The position numbers were made by a program, and so were the translations under genes. From Candidatus Obscuribacterales bacterium (GTDB taxonomy: Bacteria > Cyanobacteriota > Vampirovibrionia > Obscuribacterales > Obscuribacteraceae): a stretch of DNA of 64,000 bases. The DNA is taken from positions 3,360,001 through 3,424,000 of the forward strand of contig CBDDIJ010000003.1 of the NCBI GenBank assembly GCA_965228855.1, in the 5' to 3' direction. Shown here in pieces: positions 7,929 through 14,808 of this stretch (its first letter is position 1; every line of letters starts with the position of its first letter). The notes beneath the pieces were generated by a model. The model was not told the DNA's origin, ran no database searches, and was given only the letters and a program-made list of their open reading frames with translations.

Positions 7929-8768
7929 ATGCGAACAATCGAAGATTCGACAGCAGAATATGCTCGCGGTCTGGCCGGCGGTTTTCTCCTGAGTCTTCCG
8001 CTGCTCTACACCATGGAGGTGTGGTGGCAGGGTTTTATACTATCGCCGACACACTTGTTAGCTTTTGTCGGTGTGACATTTGTTTTGCTCTTGGGTTACA
8101 ACCGCTTCTCCGGCATGCGGAGAGACGCAAGTTTCATCGAAGTTGTCATCGACTCAGTAGAAGAACTTGGACTTGGAATTATTCTCTCCACTCTCATACT
8201 GTTTTGCCTGAACAAGATTTGGCTCGGCATGCCGATTGAAGAAGCACTAGGCAAGGTGACTATAGAAGCCATGACCGTAGCAATTGGTGTTTCCGTCGGC
8301 ACGGCTCAACTCATGAGCGACGATGAAGACACCGGCATGGAAGGTGACAGCGAAGACAAAAACAGTTTCGACATGCGAACATTCTTCGAACAAATCTTTG
8401 TGAGCTTTTGTGGAGCGACACTCGTAGGAAGCAGCATTGCTCCGACTGAGGAGGTGCTGCAAATTGCGGTGAGCTCATCTACACCTCATCTAATCAGCTT
8501 GATGATTTTGTCACTGGGCGTTATTGCAGCAGTGCTCTACATGAGCAATTTCAAAGGTGCTGACGAAATTGAAGGCGATAAGCTGCTTGCCAACAAGCTT
8601 GAGACCGTATCTGTAGTGTACGCAATTTCGATTGGGTCGGCATTTCTTTTGCTCTGGATGTATGGTCAAGTCTCCGGTGTGTCACCGGCAGTAGTTATAT
8701 CAGAAGCCATAGTTCTAGCATTCGTCACGTCACTTGGCGCATCGGCAGGGAGGTTACTGATTCAATGA
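7929..8768 (+). CDS. TIGR02587/DUF2391 family integral membrane protein
   Basis: GGFLLSLPLLYTMEVW, IAPTEEV and LGASAGRL motifs. Confidence 0.88.
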   Translation: MRTIEDSTAEYARGLAGGFLLSLPLLYTMEVWWQGFILSPTHLLAFVGVTFVLLLGYNRFSGMRRDASFIEVVIDSVEELGLGIILSTLILFCLNKIWLGMPIEEALGKVTIEAMTVAIGVSVGTAQLMSDDEDTGMEGDSEDKNSFDMRTFFEQIFVSFCGATLVGSSIAPTEEVLQIAVSSSTPHLISLMILSLGVIAAVLYMSNFKGADEIEGDKLLANKLETVSVVYAISIGSAFLLLWMYGQVSGVSPAVVISEAIVLAFVTSLGASAGRLLIQ

Positions 8769-9229
8769 CGGCGCGTACAACAAACAAAGATAAGGCCACG
8801 ACCAGGCGCTCTTCGCAAAAGGCAAGAGAAACCAAATCAGCCAAGCCCAACTCAACCTCAGGTGCACGGCTGGAGAAAAACTGGCTTGAGTGGACTGTTT
8901 TTGGCTTTAGCTTGATGCTTGTTCTTGGTCTGGTCGGTTACCTCGTGTACCTCGAAATTACACCTTCCAGTAAAGACTTTCAATATGAAATCAGTTTTGA
9001 AAAACCGCAAGAAATCCATGGCAGATACTTGGTTCCTCTGAAAATCGACAACAAAAGCAATAAGTCTGTGCAGGATGTCGCGGTAGAAATATCGTCCGGT
9101 GGAAACAAGGAGTCGGCCGATTTGCAACTCGATTACCTTCCACGACACTCGCACAGAGAAGCTACTGTGTTTTTCAGAGAAAAACCGACTCAGTTGGAAG
9201 GCCACATCAACTCATTCAACATTCCATAG
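8765..9229 (+). CDS. TIGR02588-like membrane-anchored protein
   Basis: ATGA overlap with the upstream gene; KNWLEW plus one TM helix and an Ig-like domain; usual partner of TIGR02587. Confidence 0.8.
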   Translation: MTARTTNKDKATTRRSSQKARETKSAKPNSTSGARLEKNWLEWTVFGFSLMLVLGLVGYLVYLEITPSSKDFQYEISFEKPQEIHGRYLVPLKIDNKSNKSVQDVAVEISSGGNKESADLQLDYLPRHSHREATVFFREKPTQLEGHINSFNIP

Positions 9230-9374: not shown

Positions 9375-9851
9375 ATGACCGCAGAATCATTTGAACAGCA
9401 CAACTCCCGTGAATTGCAGAATGCAGCACCTGGCGAAGGACTCTCATTTCGCCAGATTATGGAGAGTCTTCCGAACTTCGGCGATCTGACTAACCGCACA
9501 GATACCTGTGCGACCAAAAACCTTCCTAATCTCACAATAGAAAAATGCGTCTCAAACGAAATCATCAATCAGGACAATTCACTGTCCAGTTCTAGAGACT
9601 TCGGCAATCGGGACAAACCAAATCTCAACTCCGATCAGTCACAGGTCAAGCCAGAAAAACCATTTAAGCCAGTTCAGCCACTCGGCGAACTCGACTTACC
9701 TGAAAAAAATCCTCTGAAGCCAGTCCCCAAACCAGGTCTTGGCGGCATCAAAGACTGCCTGCCGGAAAAGCCGCAACGAGAGCCCCACAAACCCATTAAC
9801 AGCCTTGATGGAAAACCGATTGAGGCAAAACCTTATCTGCCAAAGAAATAG
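9375..9851 (+). CDS. Hypothetical Pro/Lys-rich, likely disordered protein
   Basis: 158-aa ORF after a GAGG RBS; repeated PEKP/KP segments. Confidence 0.75.
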   Translation: MTAESFEQHNSRELQNAAPGEGLSFRQIMESLPNFGDLTNRTDTCATKNLPNLTIEKCVSNEIINQDNSLSSSRDFGNRDKPNLNSDQSQVKPEKPFKPVQPLGELDLPEKNPLKPVPKPGLGGIKDCLPEKPQREPHKPINSLDGKPIEAKPYLPKK

Positions 9852-9949: not shown

Positions 9950-11737
9950 ATGAAAAATCGGTTAACGCGGAAACTCTTACTAATTGTCGCAATCCCGGTA
10001 ACTTTTGAGTTGGCGCTTTTTTCGACCTGCGCCGTAATGCTCAATATCGCTGAAATTGAGAGTGCCAACGAGTCTAGAACAATACGCGTGATGGCGCGGA
10101 TGGCACCGGTTCTGGTATCATCCGTCAGTAGCGTGACCCTGACGGCACGCGCGTTGCTCAGGAAACAGGCTGTTGACCCTGCTCATCGCTCGGCCGAACG
10201 ACTTGCCGTACAGCATGAAATAGACTCGTTTTTGAAAGTCGCCACCGATTCCGAGTTCGCAGAATATCAGCGACAAATTCGTGCGATCTGTGATGCGGCG
10301 GAAAAATTAGGCGACTGCCTGGATCAGGTCACAAGTACGATTACGAATCGAACGGAAAGTGTTCGCGCGCTGTTTGACCTTCGCGACGCCGTATCGACTA
10401 TCGACCAAACGTCTCAGATAATTTTGAATGATCTAAAGAGAAACCGCCGGGAGCTTGCAGAAAGTGATGCAGTCGTGCGACGCGCCTTTCACTTCATACT
10501 CTGGAGCAGTCTGGCAATGAGTTTTTGTGTTGCGATAATCGGCTTAATTGCGTTCGAGAAACTACTGTCAAAACCGTTGAAGGAGTTGATCAAGCTATCG
10601 AACGGACTTGCTGAGGGCATCCCGGTCGATGAGATGGAACCGATGCAACACGCTAATGATGAAATTGGAGACTTAGGTCGCGCCTTTGAATCGATGGCAG
10701 CAGAATTGGAAAAGCGGACAGGCACGGAGCGCGCGATCTTTGAAAACAGCGCTGATATTATTTGCACCATCGACAAAGAAAATCGTATTCAAATAATCAA
10801 CAACGCGGCAAAGACACATCTAGGTTTCGAACCTCGTCGTCTGGTTGATTGCGAGATTAGCGAGCTTCTGCCGGAAAAGCAAAAATCTAACGTTTTAAAT
10901 CGACTGGAAGAGATTCGAGAAAAGGAAACTTATGGCTCATTCGAGTCGACTCTTTTGAAAGAAAATGGTATCGAATTTGATGTCGTCTGGTCCGTGCGCT
11001 GGTCAAGTCAAGACGAGCTGCTTTACTGCTGCTTGTACAACATCGACTTTGAGCGAAAAACCGAACAGTTCGCAAAGAACTTAAGAACAATCGTCGTTAT
11101 CGAATTGACCCAGGCGTTAAAGGAAGCAAGATCCTCGGTCCTCAAACTCAAGAGTAGTGAAACAAAAACGACGCAAAAACTTGATCTTCTAGACAGCAAT
11201 TTCTTGAAGACAGTCAATCTTCTTAAAACACTTGGCGATGCAATTTCACAAGAATCAACCGATATTCCTTTGTCGACAAAACCCACCGAAGTTGCTGATC
11301 TACTAAAGGAAAGTCTGGAGTCGGTTTCTTTTCTGGCAAAACAAAAGTCAGTGAATATAATCGTCACTACCAGGAACGTTGATTCAATCGTAATGGACCC
11401 GGCACAGATTCAGAGGGTTGTAGTCAATCTGCTTTCCAACGCGATCAAAGCGTCTCCACAGGGCGGAGAGATAAAGGTTCTAGCAAGACTAGACGGGCAG
11501 TTTATTCACTTTGAGATCGCCGATCAAGGTCCCGGAATTCCCCTCAACAAACAACATATGCTGTTCGAACGGTTCAATCAGGTAGGAAAGCTACAGTCGG
11601 AAGAAGGCAAAGGTTCCGGTTTAGGTTTATACAGCGCAAGACAAATCGTTGAAGCACATGGTGGCACAATTGGTGTCATCAGCGACGGGCAAAACGGTTG
11701 CACTTTTCGGGTGACACTACCGGCGAGGCAGCAATGA
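9950..11737 (+). CDS. Membrane sensor kinase (TM-HAMP-PAS-DHp-HATPase) lacking the phospho-acceptor His
   Basis: N (NLLSNAIK), G1 (DQGPGI), F (LFERF) and G2 (GSGLGL) boxes intact; H-box position reads VVIELTQAL. Confidence 0.9.
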   Translation: MKNRLTRKLLLIVAIPVTFELALFSTCAVMLNIAEIESANESRTIRVMARMAPVLVSSVSSVTLTARALLRKQAVDPAHRSAERLAVQHEIDSFLKVATDSEFAEYQRQIRAICDAAEKLGDCLDQVTSTITNRTESVRALFDLRDAVSTIDQTSQIILNDLKRNRRELAESDAVVRRAFHFILWSSLAMSFCVAIIGLIAFEKLLSKPLKELIKLSNGLAEGIPVDEMEPMQHANDEIGDLGRAFESMAAELEKRTGTERAIFENSADIICTIDKENRIQIINNAAKTHLGFEPRRLVDCEISELLPEKQKSNVLNRLEEIREKETYGSFESTLLKENGIEFDVVWSVRWSSQDELLYCCLYNIDFERKTEQFAKNLRTIVVIELTQALKEARSSVLKLKSSETKTTQKLDLLDSNFLKTVNLLKTLGDAISQESTDIPLSTKPTEVADLLKESLESVSFLAKQKSVNIIVTTRNVDSIVMDPAQIQRVVVNLLSNAIKASPQGGEIKVLARLDGQFIHFEIADQGPGIPLNKQHMLFERFNQVGKLQSEEGKGSGLGLYSARQIVEAHGGTIGVISDGQNGCTFRVTLPARQQ

Positions 11738-13503
11738 AGTTAACCAATTCGATGTTTGCCAAGGTCGCGCTTATGCTGTGCATGCCTATGCTATTCGAGG
11801 TCAGCGTTATCATGACTTCAATCGGTCTGCTAAACCAGATAGATGCCGCGCGCGTAGAGAAGCGAAAAATTGGAAAAGTAGTTTACACCTACATAGATAC
11901 ATTGGATGCAATGATTAGCGACTACACAAAAGTCGCTGTATCTCTAGAAGGTAAAGAGACCGCATCCAGACAAGGATTAAACGCCCAGTTCACGCGGGCT
12001 CAAACGGGTCTAGATGATCTGTTCAAGGTTTGCTCAGAGAATGGTATTCCATGCAAAGACATCAAACGCAAAGTGATGACAAACCGCCGGCGGTTTGTAG
12101 AAGGCCGAAATGCACCTGATGAAATAAATTCTGCGCAGATTCAAAAGAGGACAGAAGCACGAGAGATCGTCAATGACGTCATCGGAATAGTAGACCAACG
12201 AGTAATGGCTCGAGTCAATTCGCTAAAAGAAGCGGAGGAATCTGAAAAAGCTCTGTTTTTGCGTATGAGCGGTTTGCTGTTTCTTGCATTTGCTGTCAGT
12301 GTGGTGTTGACTGTAAGTCTCTGCCTGCTGATCAGCAAAATGATTACCGTCAGGATTGATCATATACGAAAAAATACCGAGCGCCTCGCCAAAGGCGATC
12401 AATTGCTTCCCCCACTACGGGGTAGCGATGAAATTTCGCAGCTTGACCAGAACTTTCATGACATGAAAGATGCGCTCGTTTCAGCTGATCTGAGAAACCA
12501 GATGATTCTGGACAATTCAATAGACCTCATTTGTGCCGTCGATCGGGACCTTCAATTCGTGAAGGTGAGCAACTCAAGCGAAAACTTCTGGCAGATAAAA
12601 CCTGAGGAATTGCTTGGTCGCGCACTCTCAGAGTTCATAACATCAGATTTGCAGCTGAGCTTTATCAAAAATTTCGACGACGCTCGGGAATCTCTGGAAG
12701 TAAAACATTTTGAGGCAACCACGACAGCAGGTGAAAACTCGTTGCCGTGCCTCTGGTCTATTCAATGGTCAGACAAAGACCAGCTGTTCATATGCATCGC
12801 ACATGATAATACAGAACGGAAATCGGCAGAGGCGCGCAGACAAGATCTGCTTGCGGTAATTTCACACGATCTGCGAAGTCCGCTAACAGCAGCCAGACTT
12901 TCTCTTGAGATGTTAGAGCACGATAAGAGTTTGAAAACTCAATCCGAACACCTTGATTCAGCCAGCTCATCAGTCAACTATGTCATCTCGGTGACGAATG
13001 ATCTCATCGACCTGCTTCGAATACAACAATCTCGTTTAACTTTAGAACTTAAATTGAGTACAATCGCCAAGACAAAGGAACTAATCGAAAACCAGATGGA
13101 TAGCCAGGGAGTGGACATTGATATCAATGTAGAGCTCTCGGACGCAGCTTATTTAATGCTGGATGAAGACCAATTGCCCAGAATGATAGTCACTCTTGCC
13201 AAGCACACGAGGCTGGTCTGCGGAGACGCACCTGTTTCTCTGACAATCACTACGCTACCGGCAATCAGATTGTTGAACGATGAAGATGCAGACGACCGAA
13301 TCATCTTTCGACTGGAGCCGGCGAGTCAAAACAGGAAAGATGCCAACAGACGAGTGCAATCGGCGAAAAGAATCAGCTCAGAGATTTCACTGACGCTTTG
13401 TCACGAAATAGCGGAACGCTTGCAAGGACATATTTATACCAGCTGGACGGCTCAGGGACTGCCTACATATGAACTTCGGTTGCCCGCCATCGCATTGGGT
13501 TAA
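11734..13503 (+). CDS. Membrane sensor kinase (TM-HAMP-PAS-HisKA) with degenerate HATPase domain
   Basis: ATGA overlap with the upstream kinase; H-box ISHDLRSPL intact; no N, G1 or G2 box. Confidence 0.9.
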   Translation: MKLTNSMFAKVALMLCMPMLFEVSVIMTSIGLLNQIDAARVEKRKIGKVVYTYIDTLDAMISDYTKVAVSLEGKETASRQGLNAQFTRAQTGLDDLFKVCSENGIPCKDIKRKVMTNRRRFVEGRNAPDEINSAQIQKRTEAREIVNDVIGIVDQRVMARVNSLKEAEESEKALFLRMSGLLFLAFAVSVVLTVSLCLLISKMITVRIDHIRKNTERLAKGDQLLPPLRGSDEISQLDQNFHDMKDALVSADLRNQMILDNSIDLICAVDRDLQFVKVSNSSENFWQIKPEELLGRALSEFITSDLQLSFIKNFDDARESLEVKHFEATTTAGENSLPCLWSIQWSDKDQLFICIAHDNTERKSAEARRQDLLAVISHDLRSPLTAARLSLEMLEHDKSLKTQSEHLDSASSSVNYVISVTNDLIDLLRIQQSRLTLELKLSTIAKTKELIENQMDSQGVDIDINVELSDAAYLMLDEDQLPRMIVTLAKHTRLVCGDAPVSLTITTLPAIRLLNDEDADDRIIFRLEPASQNRKDANRRVQSAKRISSEISLTLCHEIAERLQGHIYTSWTAQGLPTYELRLPAIALG

Positions 13504-13528
13504 AATATAGACTCGGAGAATTGGACCT

Positions 13529-14203
13529 ATGGCGAAAATCTTAGTTGTCGAAGACGACGAGTCACTCGTACTCGAATTGAAGGAGATTCTCTCTCAAGAG
13601 GGTCATGTCGTTGATGTCGTCAATGATGGGCGCTCGGCGCTGGAGTCTCTGAAGAATTTCACTTACGAATTGCTAATTTTCGATGTCAATATTCCTGAGA
13701 TAAACGGCGTCCAACTTTGTACGCAATTCAGAGCCGCCGGTGGTATCACACCGGTGCTGATGCTCACAGGATTATCCTCGGACGCGGACAAGGAAACAGG
13801 CTTGGACTCAGGCGCCGATGATTATTTGACAAAACCATTCAGCTCCCGCGAGTTGCAAGCACGTATCAGGGCTCTGCTCCGGCGCTCTCCCGTCGCGCCA
13901 TCCAGCGCTCTCAAATATCGCGACCTGGTCGTCGACACGACAACCAAATCTGTTAAACGCGGTGAAAAAGATATCAAACTGTGGCCAAAGGAGTACGATG
14001 TCCTCGTTTATCTCCTGAAGCACATCAATCATGTATTCGATGCAGACGCTCTATTGAATCGAGTCTGGCCCATGGAGGCCGAAACATCTCCTGAAGCGAT
14101 TCGACAATGCGTAAAGCGCCTTCGCGAAAAAATAGATATCGATGGAGAGCCCTCGATTATCTCCACAGTCAAAGGCTTCGGTTACACAATCAAAGATATT
14201 TGA
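13529..14203 (+). CDS. OmpR/PhoB family response regulator
   Basis: ILVVEDD, LIFDVNIP (phospho-Asp), YLTKPF and winged-helix LREKI...ISTVKGFGY. Confidence 0.95.
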   Translation: MAKILVVEDDESLVLELKEILSQEGHVVDVVNDGRSALESLKNFTYELLIFDVNIPEINGVQLCTQFRAAGGITPVLMLTGLSSDADKETGLDSGADDYLTKPFSSRELQARIRALLRRSPVAPSSALKYRDLVVDTTTKSVKRGEKDIKLWPKEYDVLVYLLKHINHVFDADALLNRVWPMEAETSPEAIRQCVKRLREKIDIDGEPSIISTVKGFGYTIKDI

Positions 14204-14313: not shown

Positions 14314-14808
14314 TTACTTCCGTCCTTGACCTTCCGCCTCGACAGAAAGGACACGGCTATTGGTTTCTAAATCGAAAACCGATACGGTATAACTACTCAC
14401 AGGCATGCGCCCTTCTTCCGGTACAACCTTAACGACTCGACCAGAAGGCTCAAGACGCTGGTTAAGCTGCTCCGCTACGCAATCCATGGTGGCACTACCG
14501 GACGAAGAAGCATCGCTGAATAGCTCCTCGAGGCGGGAAGCAGGCTGCGATTTATTATTCAGTTTTCCATCACTCAATTGGTCGGCGAGCTTGTCCAAAC
14601 CGGCAGCAGGTGCAGCGCCGTTACAAATATCCAGTGCTGGAAGAATCCCCTGCAGGTTTTCCGAACCTTGACCGGTTGTTCGTCCCCCTTTAACGAAGTC
14701 CTGACGGATTTCGTCAAACAGTTGTCGACCCAAATTTTGCTCGTTGCTATTAGTAAGTGTTTTGCCATCAGAGCTGGCATCAAACGGTCGTTCAATGAAT
14801 GTAGACAT
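14314..14808 (-). CDS. Hypothetical protein
   Basis: 164-aa ORF after a GAGGAG RBS; no signal peptide. Confidence 0.75.
   Translation of the reverse strand: MSTFIERPFDASSDGKTLTNSNEQNLGRQLFDEIRQDFVKGGRTTGQGSENLQGILPALDICNGAAPAAGLDKLADQLSDGKLNNKSQPASRLEELFSDASSSGSATMDCVAEQLNQRLEPSGRVVKVVPEEGRMPVSSYTVSVFDLETNSRVLSVEAEGQGRK

Follow-up and report, generated by a model that had tools for sequence, protein, structure and literature searches.

Architecture of the locus

Two overlapping genes for membrane-bound histidine kinase-like proteins, here called HK1 and HK2, are followed by a gene for an OmpR-type response regulator in a 64,000-nucleotide stretch of the 8.2 Mb genome of an uncultured Candidatus Obscuribacterales bacterium (GenBank assembly GCA_965228855.1, contig CBDDIJ010000003.1, positions 3,360,001 to 3,424,000), referred to below as the window. 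Both kinase proteins run from a transmembrane (TM) segment through a sensor region, a second TM segment, HAMP and PAS to a dimerization and histidine phosphotransfer (DHp) domain and a catalytic, ATP-binding (CA) domain, and each lacks the catalytic element that the other keeps. In Pfam searches HK1 matched HAMP at residues 205-254, PAS at 261-357 and HATPase_c at 483-593 (96.2 bits), with no HisKA match, while HK2 matched HAMP, PAS_4 and HisKA at 369-432 (47.7 bits), with no HATPase_c match. Two hydrophobic segments enclose a sensor region of about 150 residues in each protein, congruent with the TM-sensor-TM layout; neither sensor domain matched a Pfam family, and paralogs of the pair gave CHASE3 matches below threshold only.

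HK1 and HK2 can be aligned end to end (22% identity, expectation value E 3e-25) and are thus paralogs, and their post-PAS segments align without gaps. The common layout and the gap-free segment had been proposed in an earlier reading made from the letters alone, hereafter the sequence-only reading, and both hold in Pfam, in the distribution of hydrophobic segments and in the full-length alignment. The regulator (Response_reg, 97.5 bits; Trans_reg_C, 69.7 bits) combines a receiver carrying its acceptor Asp with a winged-helix domain, all features of the OmpR family. That both kinase open reading frames (ORFs) are full length and the regulator keeps its Asp is likewise confirmed. The start codon of HK2 overlaps the stop codon of HK1 exactly where it had been placed; the overlap likely reflects translational coupling, and judged from coordinates the same four bases are shared at six of seven orthologous loci. 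The assigned start of HK1, an ATG at 9950, is backed by the N-termini of its orthologs (MKNRLTR or MKHRLTR).

Table 1. Features of the kinase operon and of the related pairs in the same genome. Positions count from the first letter of the window; for the further pairs they are given by contig of the whole genome (G000).
Feature	Position	Strand	Description	Basis
HK1	9950..11737	+	595 aa; TM-sensor-TM-HAMP-PAS-DHp-CA paralog without phospho-acceptor His, ATP-binding CA intact	ORF and translation
Ile384 codon ATC	11099..11101	+	on the phospho-His column of HK1	
HK1 CA (HATPase_c) domain	11396..11728	+	N box 11426-11452, G1 11522-11539, F 11561-11575, G2 11606-11629	
ATGA	11734..11737	+	start codon of HK2 overlapping the stop codon (TGA) of HK1	
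HK2	11734..13503	+	589 aa; TM-sensor-TM-HAMP-PAS-DHp-pseudoCA paralog, phospho-acceptor His kept, CA-like domain without motifs	ORF and Pfam
His378 codon CAC	12865..12867	+	predicted phospho-acceptor of HK2; invariant in 7/7 orthologs	
HK2 pseudo-CA domain, residues 438-589	13045..13500	+	fold of a CA domain, without the N, G1, F/lid and G2 motifs	
OmpR-type response regulator	13529..14203	+	224 aa; receiver Asp52 at 13682-13684	Pfam
Seven further reciprocal pairs	G000:C2:1242991-1247378, C2:1694448-1698793, C3:2329369-2333750, C5:940969-945416, C5:787192-791072, C3:1906928-1909803, C3:509244-512175		six overlap by 4 bases, one by 8	

Reciprocal loss of the catalytic motifs

In textbook accounts a histidine kinase consists of two identical chains, both of them with an acceptor His and an ATP-binding domain. 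In HK1 the His column is occupied by Ile384, as placed by two independent alignments, the first to the solved structure of VicK (4i5s) and the second to a set of 14 paralogs of which 13 have every motif intact, and no His of any kind is found in residues 360-445. The N, G1, F and G2 boxes of its CA domain are all kept, with N493, N497, D525, G527, G529, F539, G557 and G559 invariant across a 46-sequence alignment. In HK2, which holds the His, the Asn of the N box is replaced by His beside a one-residue deletion, the DxGxG of G1 is lost, about 11 residues surrounding the F box are deleted and G2 reads SSEISL. The sequence-only reading had located the Ile and the His at these same codons, with the boxes of HK1 intact and N, G1 and G2 of HK2 lost, all of which stands after inspection of the codons and of the VicK and paralog alignments; the F/lid stretch of HK2 is to be added to the losses.

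Measured against a canonical, self-sufficient HisKA kinase, HK1 is therefore short of the acceptor His and HK2 of the N, G1, F and G2 boxes, and both remain homologous to such kinases over the whole transmitter (DHp plus CA fold), as seen in full-length alignments with intact paralogs. Nor is this a split kinase in the strict sense, with complementary domains physically missing, since motifs have been lost and the DHp and CA-fold domains are kept in both proteins. The pseudo-CA domain of HK2 is still confidently predicted to adopt the kinase CA fold: the AlphaFold2 model reached a mean predicted local distance difference test score (pLDDT) of 85.4 and a predicted template modelling score (pTM) of 0.81, and its best Foldseek matches were CA domains of histidine kinases (E about 1e-7, query template modelling score, TMq, 0.6-0.7).

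Conservation and selection

Orthologs were sought in 107 Obscuribacterales genomes, with the pseudo-CA domain as query for HK2 and the N-terminal 440 residues for HK1. HK2 orthologs were recovered from seven genomes of three genera and HK1 orthologs from exactly the same seven, a perfect co-occurrence; a further scan of the genome collection with the HK2 alignment returned six loci and no ortholog beyond those already found. At all seven loci the two kinase genes are adjacent and the regulator gene comes next. The His column of the HK1 orthologs reads I, I, R, R, R, N and G, whereas every HK2 ortholog has the His and a motif-less CA domain, so that the reciprocal pattern is shared across genera at 37-48% protein identity. 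A variable residue at the lost His site, beside conserved neighbours, has the look of an old and tolerated loss.

Ratios of nonsynonymous to synonymous substitution rates (dN/dS) were calculated by the Nei-Gojobori method (NG86), with domains of unsaturated dS taken as estimable. For the His-less DHp domain of HK1 the ratio was 0.07 between the window's genome and a genome of the same genus (G000-G007) and 0.20 between two others (G009-G116), and for the HK1 CA domain 0.03 and 0.14; the DHp domain of HK2 gave 0.02-0.16 and its pseudo-CA domain 0.21 and 0.11-0.14. Every domain with unsaturated dS fell within 0.02-0.24. Both degenerate domains (0.07-0.21) are thus held under purifying selection. 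Between the window's genome and G009, of another genus, HK1 is least conserved in its DHp domain (27% identity) as opposed to its CA domain (44%), whereas HK2 is best conserved in its DHp domain (53%) as opposed to the pseudo-CA domain (38%). Conservation hence flips between the two proteins as a division of labour predicts. Of the 14 ortholog genes inspected, all but one are open over their full length.

A separate observation concerns the extracytoplasmic sensor region of HK2. Over positions 11851-12300 of the window, this genome and G007, which belong to one genus, agree at 69-78% of their nucleotides, as opposed to 91-99% elsewhere in the operon, and the segment shows a dS of 1.68 with a dN/dS of 0.05. 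This mosaic block looks like a divergent allele imported by recombination, not like positive selection.

Further tandem pairs in the same genome

All ORFs of at least 250 aa in the window's genome were scanned against a profile of intact paralogs, yielding 101 kinase ORFs. Among them are eight tandem pairs, the window pair included, in which a member without the His and with a live CA domain lies beside a His-bearing member with degenerate N and G1 boxes. The genes overlap by 4 bases in seven of the pairs and by 8 bases in one, and the His column of the His-less members carries R, Q, E, T, N, S, D and I. In the seven other pairs (numbered 1 to 7), the His-less or A members scored 103-113 bits for HATPase_c, with HisKA absent or at 20.5-31.8 bits, and the His-bearing or B members 42.6-62.4 bits for HisKA, with HATPase_c absent or at 21.6-49.8 bits (Pfam). 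The His-less gene is upstream in six of the eight, as in the window, and the order is reversed in pairs 6 and 7. Only two of the seven (pairs 4 and 5) adjoin a gene for an OmpR-type regulator, the remainder being orphan pairs.

In an IQ-TREE phylogeny of 49 proteins, the A members of pairs 1-4 (branch value 99, starred) and their B members (100, starred) form two clades of matching internal topology, which shows that pairs 1-4 were copied as whole pairs. Pair 5 falls together with an intact kinase (96, starred), and on the starred branches of the tree each label must have changed three times or more. The window's HK1 and HK2 come out as sister clades with modest support (Shimodaira-Hasegawa-like approximate likelihood ratio test, SH-aLRT, 82), suggesting that this pair likely arose by tandem duplication. 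Two more pairs with a 4-base overlap (G000:C2:2414976-2418676 and G000:C3:2881627-2885222) are intact at all motifs in both members; their upstream members group together (100, starred), as do the downstream ones (99, starred), and intact pairs therefore duplicate as units too, hinting that pairing precedes the reciprocal loss.

In another genus, a paralog (G018:C35:5208-9923) has Glu on the His column (LAEDLRTPL) and intact CA motifs, with a second kinase match directly beside it; the two probably constitute another reciprocal pair.

Fused double kinases

An exhaustive HMMER search of 1.84 billion representatives was run with HK2 as query, and the 150 best matches were classified by their motif columns. 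Two complete kinase modules, each of TM-sensor-TM-HAMP-PAS-DHp-CA type, are joined in 65 of these 150 best relatives, which are mostly about 1,200-1,350 aa long (typically about 1,250). A module without His and with a live CA domain precedes one with His and a dead CA domain (H-CA+ then H+CA-) in 49 of the 65; the opposite order (H+CA- then H-CA+) accounts for four, 11 are intact in both modules, one has lost only the second CA domain (H+CA+ then H+CA-), and none sets a wholly dead module beside an intact one. Reciprocal loss is consequently found in 53 of the 65 fusions and in 53 of the 54 that are degenerate at all. The His column is Ser in 28 of the 49 His-less modules of the prevailing class.

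Several genera of the same family have stop-free frames of about 1,220-1,350 aa in their genomes. Each fused protein has four hydrophobic segments, which places both kinase cores in the cytoplasm. A FastTree phylogeny of the modules unites the fused proteins in one clade (100, starred), divided into a module-1 clade (99, starred) and a module-2 clade (96, starred), within which the intact, reversed and reciprocal forms occupy separate sublineages. Reciprocal loss has therefore arisen in both orientations from intact fused ancestors.

A probable composite kinase and its alternatives

We consider it probable that HK1 and HK2 make up one composite kinase, in which the CA domain of HK1 would bind ATP and, acting in trans, phosphorylate HK2 on His378; the two would most likely be joined as a DHp heterodimer, and phosphorylated HK2 would then pass the phosphoryl group to Asp52 of the adjacent regulator. 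The His-less DHp domain of HK1 would supply the second half of the four-helix bundle, the pseudo-CA domain of HK2 may have a structural or regulatory role, and two different extracytoplasmic sensor domains would feed one output; that these act as an AND gate is speculation. The core of the sequence-only reading, namely that neither protein would autophosphorylate alone and that the CA domain of HK1 would serve the His of HK2, gains strong comparative support from conservation, co-occurrence, the seven other pairs and the 53 of 65 fusions.

Because the pattern is conserved and recurrent, a chance origin is excluded. The pattern also argues for a trans mechanism: in cis, loss of the His would idle the CA domain of the same chain, leaving one dead and one intact module, a form absent from all eight pairs and all 65 fusions. 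A mixed DHp four-helix bundle would be the simplest geometry, and it would explain why both the His-less DHp domain and the motif-less CA fold have been kept.

The same complementation could be reached with another quaternary structure, HK1 and HK2 homodimers standing side by side in the membrane and the CA domain of HK1 reaching the His on a separate HK2 bundle, as CheA4 does for CheA3. Split kinases acting between separate proteins exist in the form of that CheA pair, and isolated EnvZ domains are described as working in trans in vitro (PMC3591291). Moreover, all the comparative evidence suits such an arrangement equally well, and the fused proteins could dimerize module to module. We nevertheless regard it as unlikely, since it explains less simply why a His-less DHp domain and a motif-less CA fold remain under purifying selection, and the want of any wholly dead module among the 65 fusions is to be expected of chains packed closely in one bundle with trans geometry. 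FasB and FasC of group A Streptococcus, for which the published two-hybrid assays report no homodimerization (PMC12675982), also speak for the heterodimer. A still less probable scheme, to which we give little credit, dispenses with complementation altogether: HK2 would serve the regulator as a phosphatase or in phosphotransfer, with small phosphodonors or a different kinase feeding it, and HK1 would be a regulatory pseudokinase without the His, which binds ATP and tunes HK2 as a modulator or scaffold, never phosphorylating it, in the manner of DivL or RetS. Regulatory His-less kinase-like proteins are described, such as the DivL pseudokinase (PMC4211667) and RetS, which inhibits GacS (PMC8498467), and about 100 other kinases encoded in the genome are possible feeders. 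A scaffold, however, would have no need of ATP-binding and catalytic motifs that are all invariant, nor of a CA domain with a dN/dS of 0.03-0.14, and the scheme gives no reason for the strict reciprocity in eight pairs and 53 of 54 degenerate fusions, nor for the perfect co-occurrence of the two genes.

Decay, with one or both genes being pseudogenes from a recent tandem duplication, finds some footing in the fact that each protein is without a motif essential to a canonical kinase, and in an in-frame stop in one ortholog. Against it stand the 13 of 14 ortholog genes with full-length open frames, a pattern common across genera at 37-48% protein identity, and dN/dS values well under 1 wherever the dS of a domain is unsaturated. 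The sequence-only reading had taken intact motifs in close orthologs as the sign of recent decay, and the orthologs keep the reciprocal pattern instead. Recent decay is thus contradicted on three sides and is given next to no weight.

Several observations count against a composite heterodimeric kinase. The pair is patchily distributed, in only seven of 107 genomes and, within the genus of the window, in only two of seven, and the system is therefore dispensable. The stop mentioned above lies in the HK1 ortholog of G103 (G103:C102, position 3285), as an in-frame TAA one codon before the G2 box; the frame and the conserved sequence resume past it in an assembly that is 64% complete, and the stop is either an artefact of assembly or a mark of decay in the lineage of G103. 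The residue four positions after the His of HK2 is Ser, not Thr or Asn, in six of seven orthologs, which bears on phosphatase competence, the phosphatase motif of histidine kinases being given as E/DxxT/N (PMC3591291). The FastTree module tree separates HK1 and HK2 of the window, with weak support. The fusion counts stem from a search seeded with HK2, a B-type protein, among related clusters and are neither unbiased nor independent, and for eight of the 49 fusions in the prevailing class a dead CA domain means that no CA stretch could be aligned, two of these eight (779 and 1,070 aa) being far shorter than usual and possibly incomplete. Finally, support for contact between HK1 and HK2 is indirect, coming from co-occurrence, co-duplication and fusions, and phosphotransfer is likewise predicted; a pair of homodimeric bundles kept in one complex would suit the fusions and the gene overlap just as well.

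On a broader scale, and as a tentative view to which we would give somewhat less than even chances, the Obscuribacterales may have turned the kinase dimer into a heterodimer platform. Intact tandem or fused doubles would repeatedly, and in either orientation, have shed one His and the opposite CA domain, each giving a fixed, asymmetric and strictly trans enzyme with two inputs and one output; the window pair would then be one unfused member of a large undescribed class.

If the composite kinase is real, a natural, conserved pair with one catalytic half per chain would amount to a fixed version of the classic mutant-complementation experiment, a parallel strengthened by eight pairs in one genome and dozens of fusions in both orientations. 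It would then provide direct natural evidence on whether this kinase lineage phosphorylates in trans, on whether one His and one CA domain per dimer suffice (half-of-sites asymmetry) and on how duplicated signalling proteins grow mutually dependent. With the pairs and fusions, both the cis or trans direction of phosphorylation and half-of-sites asymmetry can be tested on natural proteins, and sensors with two inputs find a scaffold that already exists. Annotators should avoid labelling such genes, taken in isolation, as pseudokinases or orphan kinases. The interest for two-component specialists lies mainly in the family-wide recurrence and the single-chain fusions.

Neighbouring genes

Small ORFs lie on either side of the operon, at 9375-9851 on the forward strand and 14314-14808 on the reverse strand. 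They match no Pfam family, and ORFs occupy the positions of both at all seven orthologous loci. The homology of both was tested in one other genus, by comparison with genome G009, where the 164-aa ORF has a counterpart of 36% identity (E 4e-15) with a common C-terminal AEGxGRK and the 158-aa ORF a match at E 1e-4. The two may be targets or accessories of the kinase system. Being without paralogs in their own genome, they were rejected as general companions of such kinase pairs. Further upstream, at 7929-9229 of the window, come an ORF for a DUF2391 integral membrane protein (252 bits) and then, overlapping it, a small membrane ORF that matches DUF2393 weakly, both conserved in the same-genus genome G007.

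Comparison with known systems

A literature search, with subscription journals outside its coverage, turned up no description of full-length HisKA partners with reciprocal degeneration, of reciprocal double kinases in fused form or of kinases from the Obscuribacterales; it yielded only RetS-GacS, HrrS-ChrS, FasB/FasC, DivL, the split CheA proteins and a mycobacterial three-gene system. In the classic complementation of EnvZ mutants, a His-less subunit with a live CA domain reportedly phosphorylates a His-bearing subunit with a dead CA domain within one dimer, and HK1 and HK2 look like a natural, fixed version of this. The EnvZ case is, however, a laboratory construct of one gene, whereas HK1 and HK2 are two natural genes that have diverged to 22% identity and carry different sensor domains. 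Rv0600c and Rv0601c of Mycobacterium tuberculosis are each said to be a fragment carrying one domain, from which HK1 and HK2 differ in being full length with degenerate counterpart domains. The likeness is in the three-gene unit Rv0600c-Rv0601c-TcrA, described as two sensor kinases and one regulator (PMC3544749).

A statement that nothing like the pair exists would need correcting in view of the precedents FasB/FasC (PMC12675982) and CheA3/CheA4 (PMC3591291). For the split CheA3/CheA4 of Rhodobacter sphaeroides, the published account has neither CheA autophosphorylating alone, one of them being ATP-binding and the other phosphorylatable, and the pair feeding one regulator; it likewise mentions the splitting of EnvZ into domains that work in trans in vitro (PMC3591291). 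As described there, however, CheA3 and CheA4 belong to the CheA and not the HisKA class, and the missing domains are physically absent, unlike in full-length paralogs with two sensors. RetS-GacS and HrrS-ChrS share with HK1 and HK2 that a kinase contacts a different kinase via the DHp region (PMC8498467; PMC9491836; PMC12189002). In these descriptions, though, the partners can also homodimerize, the contacts are inhibitory or represent cross-talk between separate, self-sufficient systems, and no reciprocal motif loss is reported.

Among published systems FasB/FasC/FasA of group A Streptococcus comes closest; there, as described, two adjacent kinase-like membrane proteins serve one regulator, with FasB giving the kinase domain and FasC the His. 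FasB and FasC are reported to heterodimerize, with no homodimers in the two-hybrid assay; H246 of FasC is required while its kinase domain is dispensable, the authors calling FasC a pseudokinase (PMC12675982). The same division, with one gene providing the CA domain, the other the His, and one regulator beside them, is found at the level of sequence motifs at all seven loci of the present pair. The published FasB retains its DHp His (H284), a role for which the authors do not exclude, and FasA is described as ComE-like (PMC12675982), whereas the DHp domain of HK1 has no His at all and the regulator here is of the OmpR type (Trans_reg_C). Common descent with FasB/FasC, in the sense of one kinase and regulator class, is hence not borne out by the regulator, which the published description of FasA sets apart. 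Both HK1 and HK2, furthermore, keep full sensor, HAMP and PAS modules, and the arrangement, known here from sequence alone, is multiplied into eight pairs in one genome and occurs in single-chain fusions as well. The resemblance to FasB/FasC is one of mechanism, not of family.

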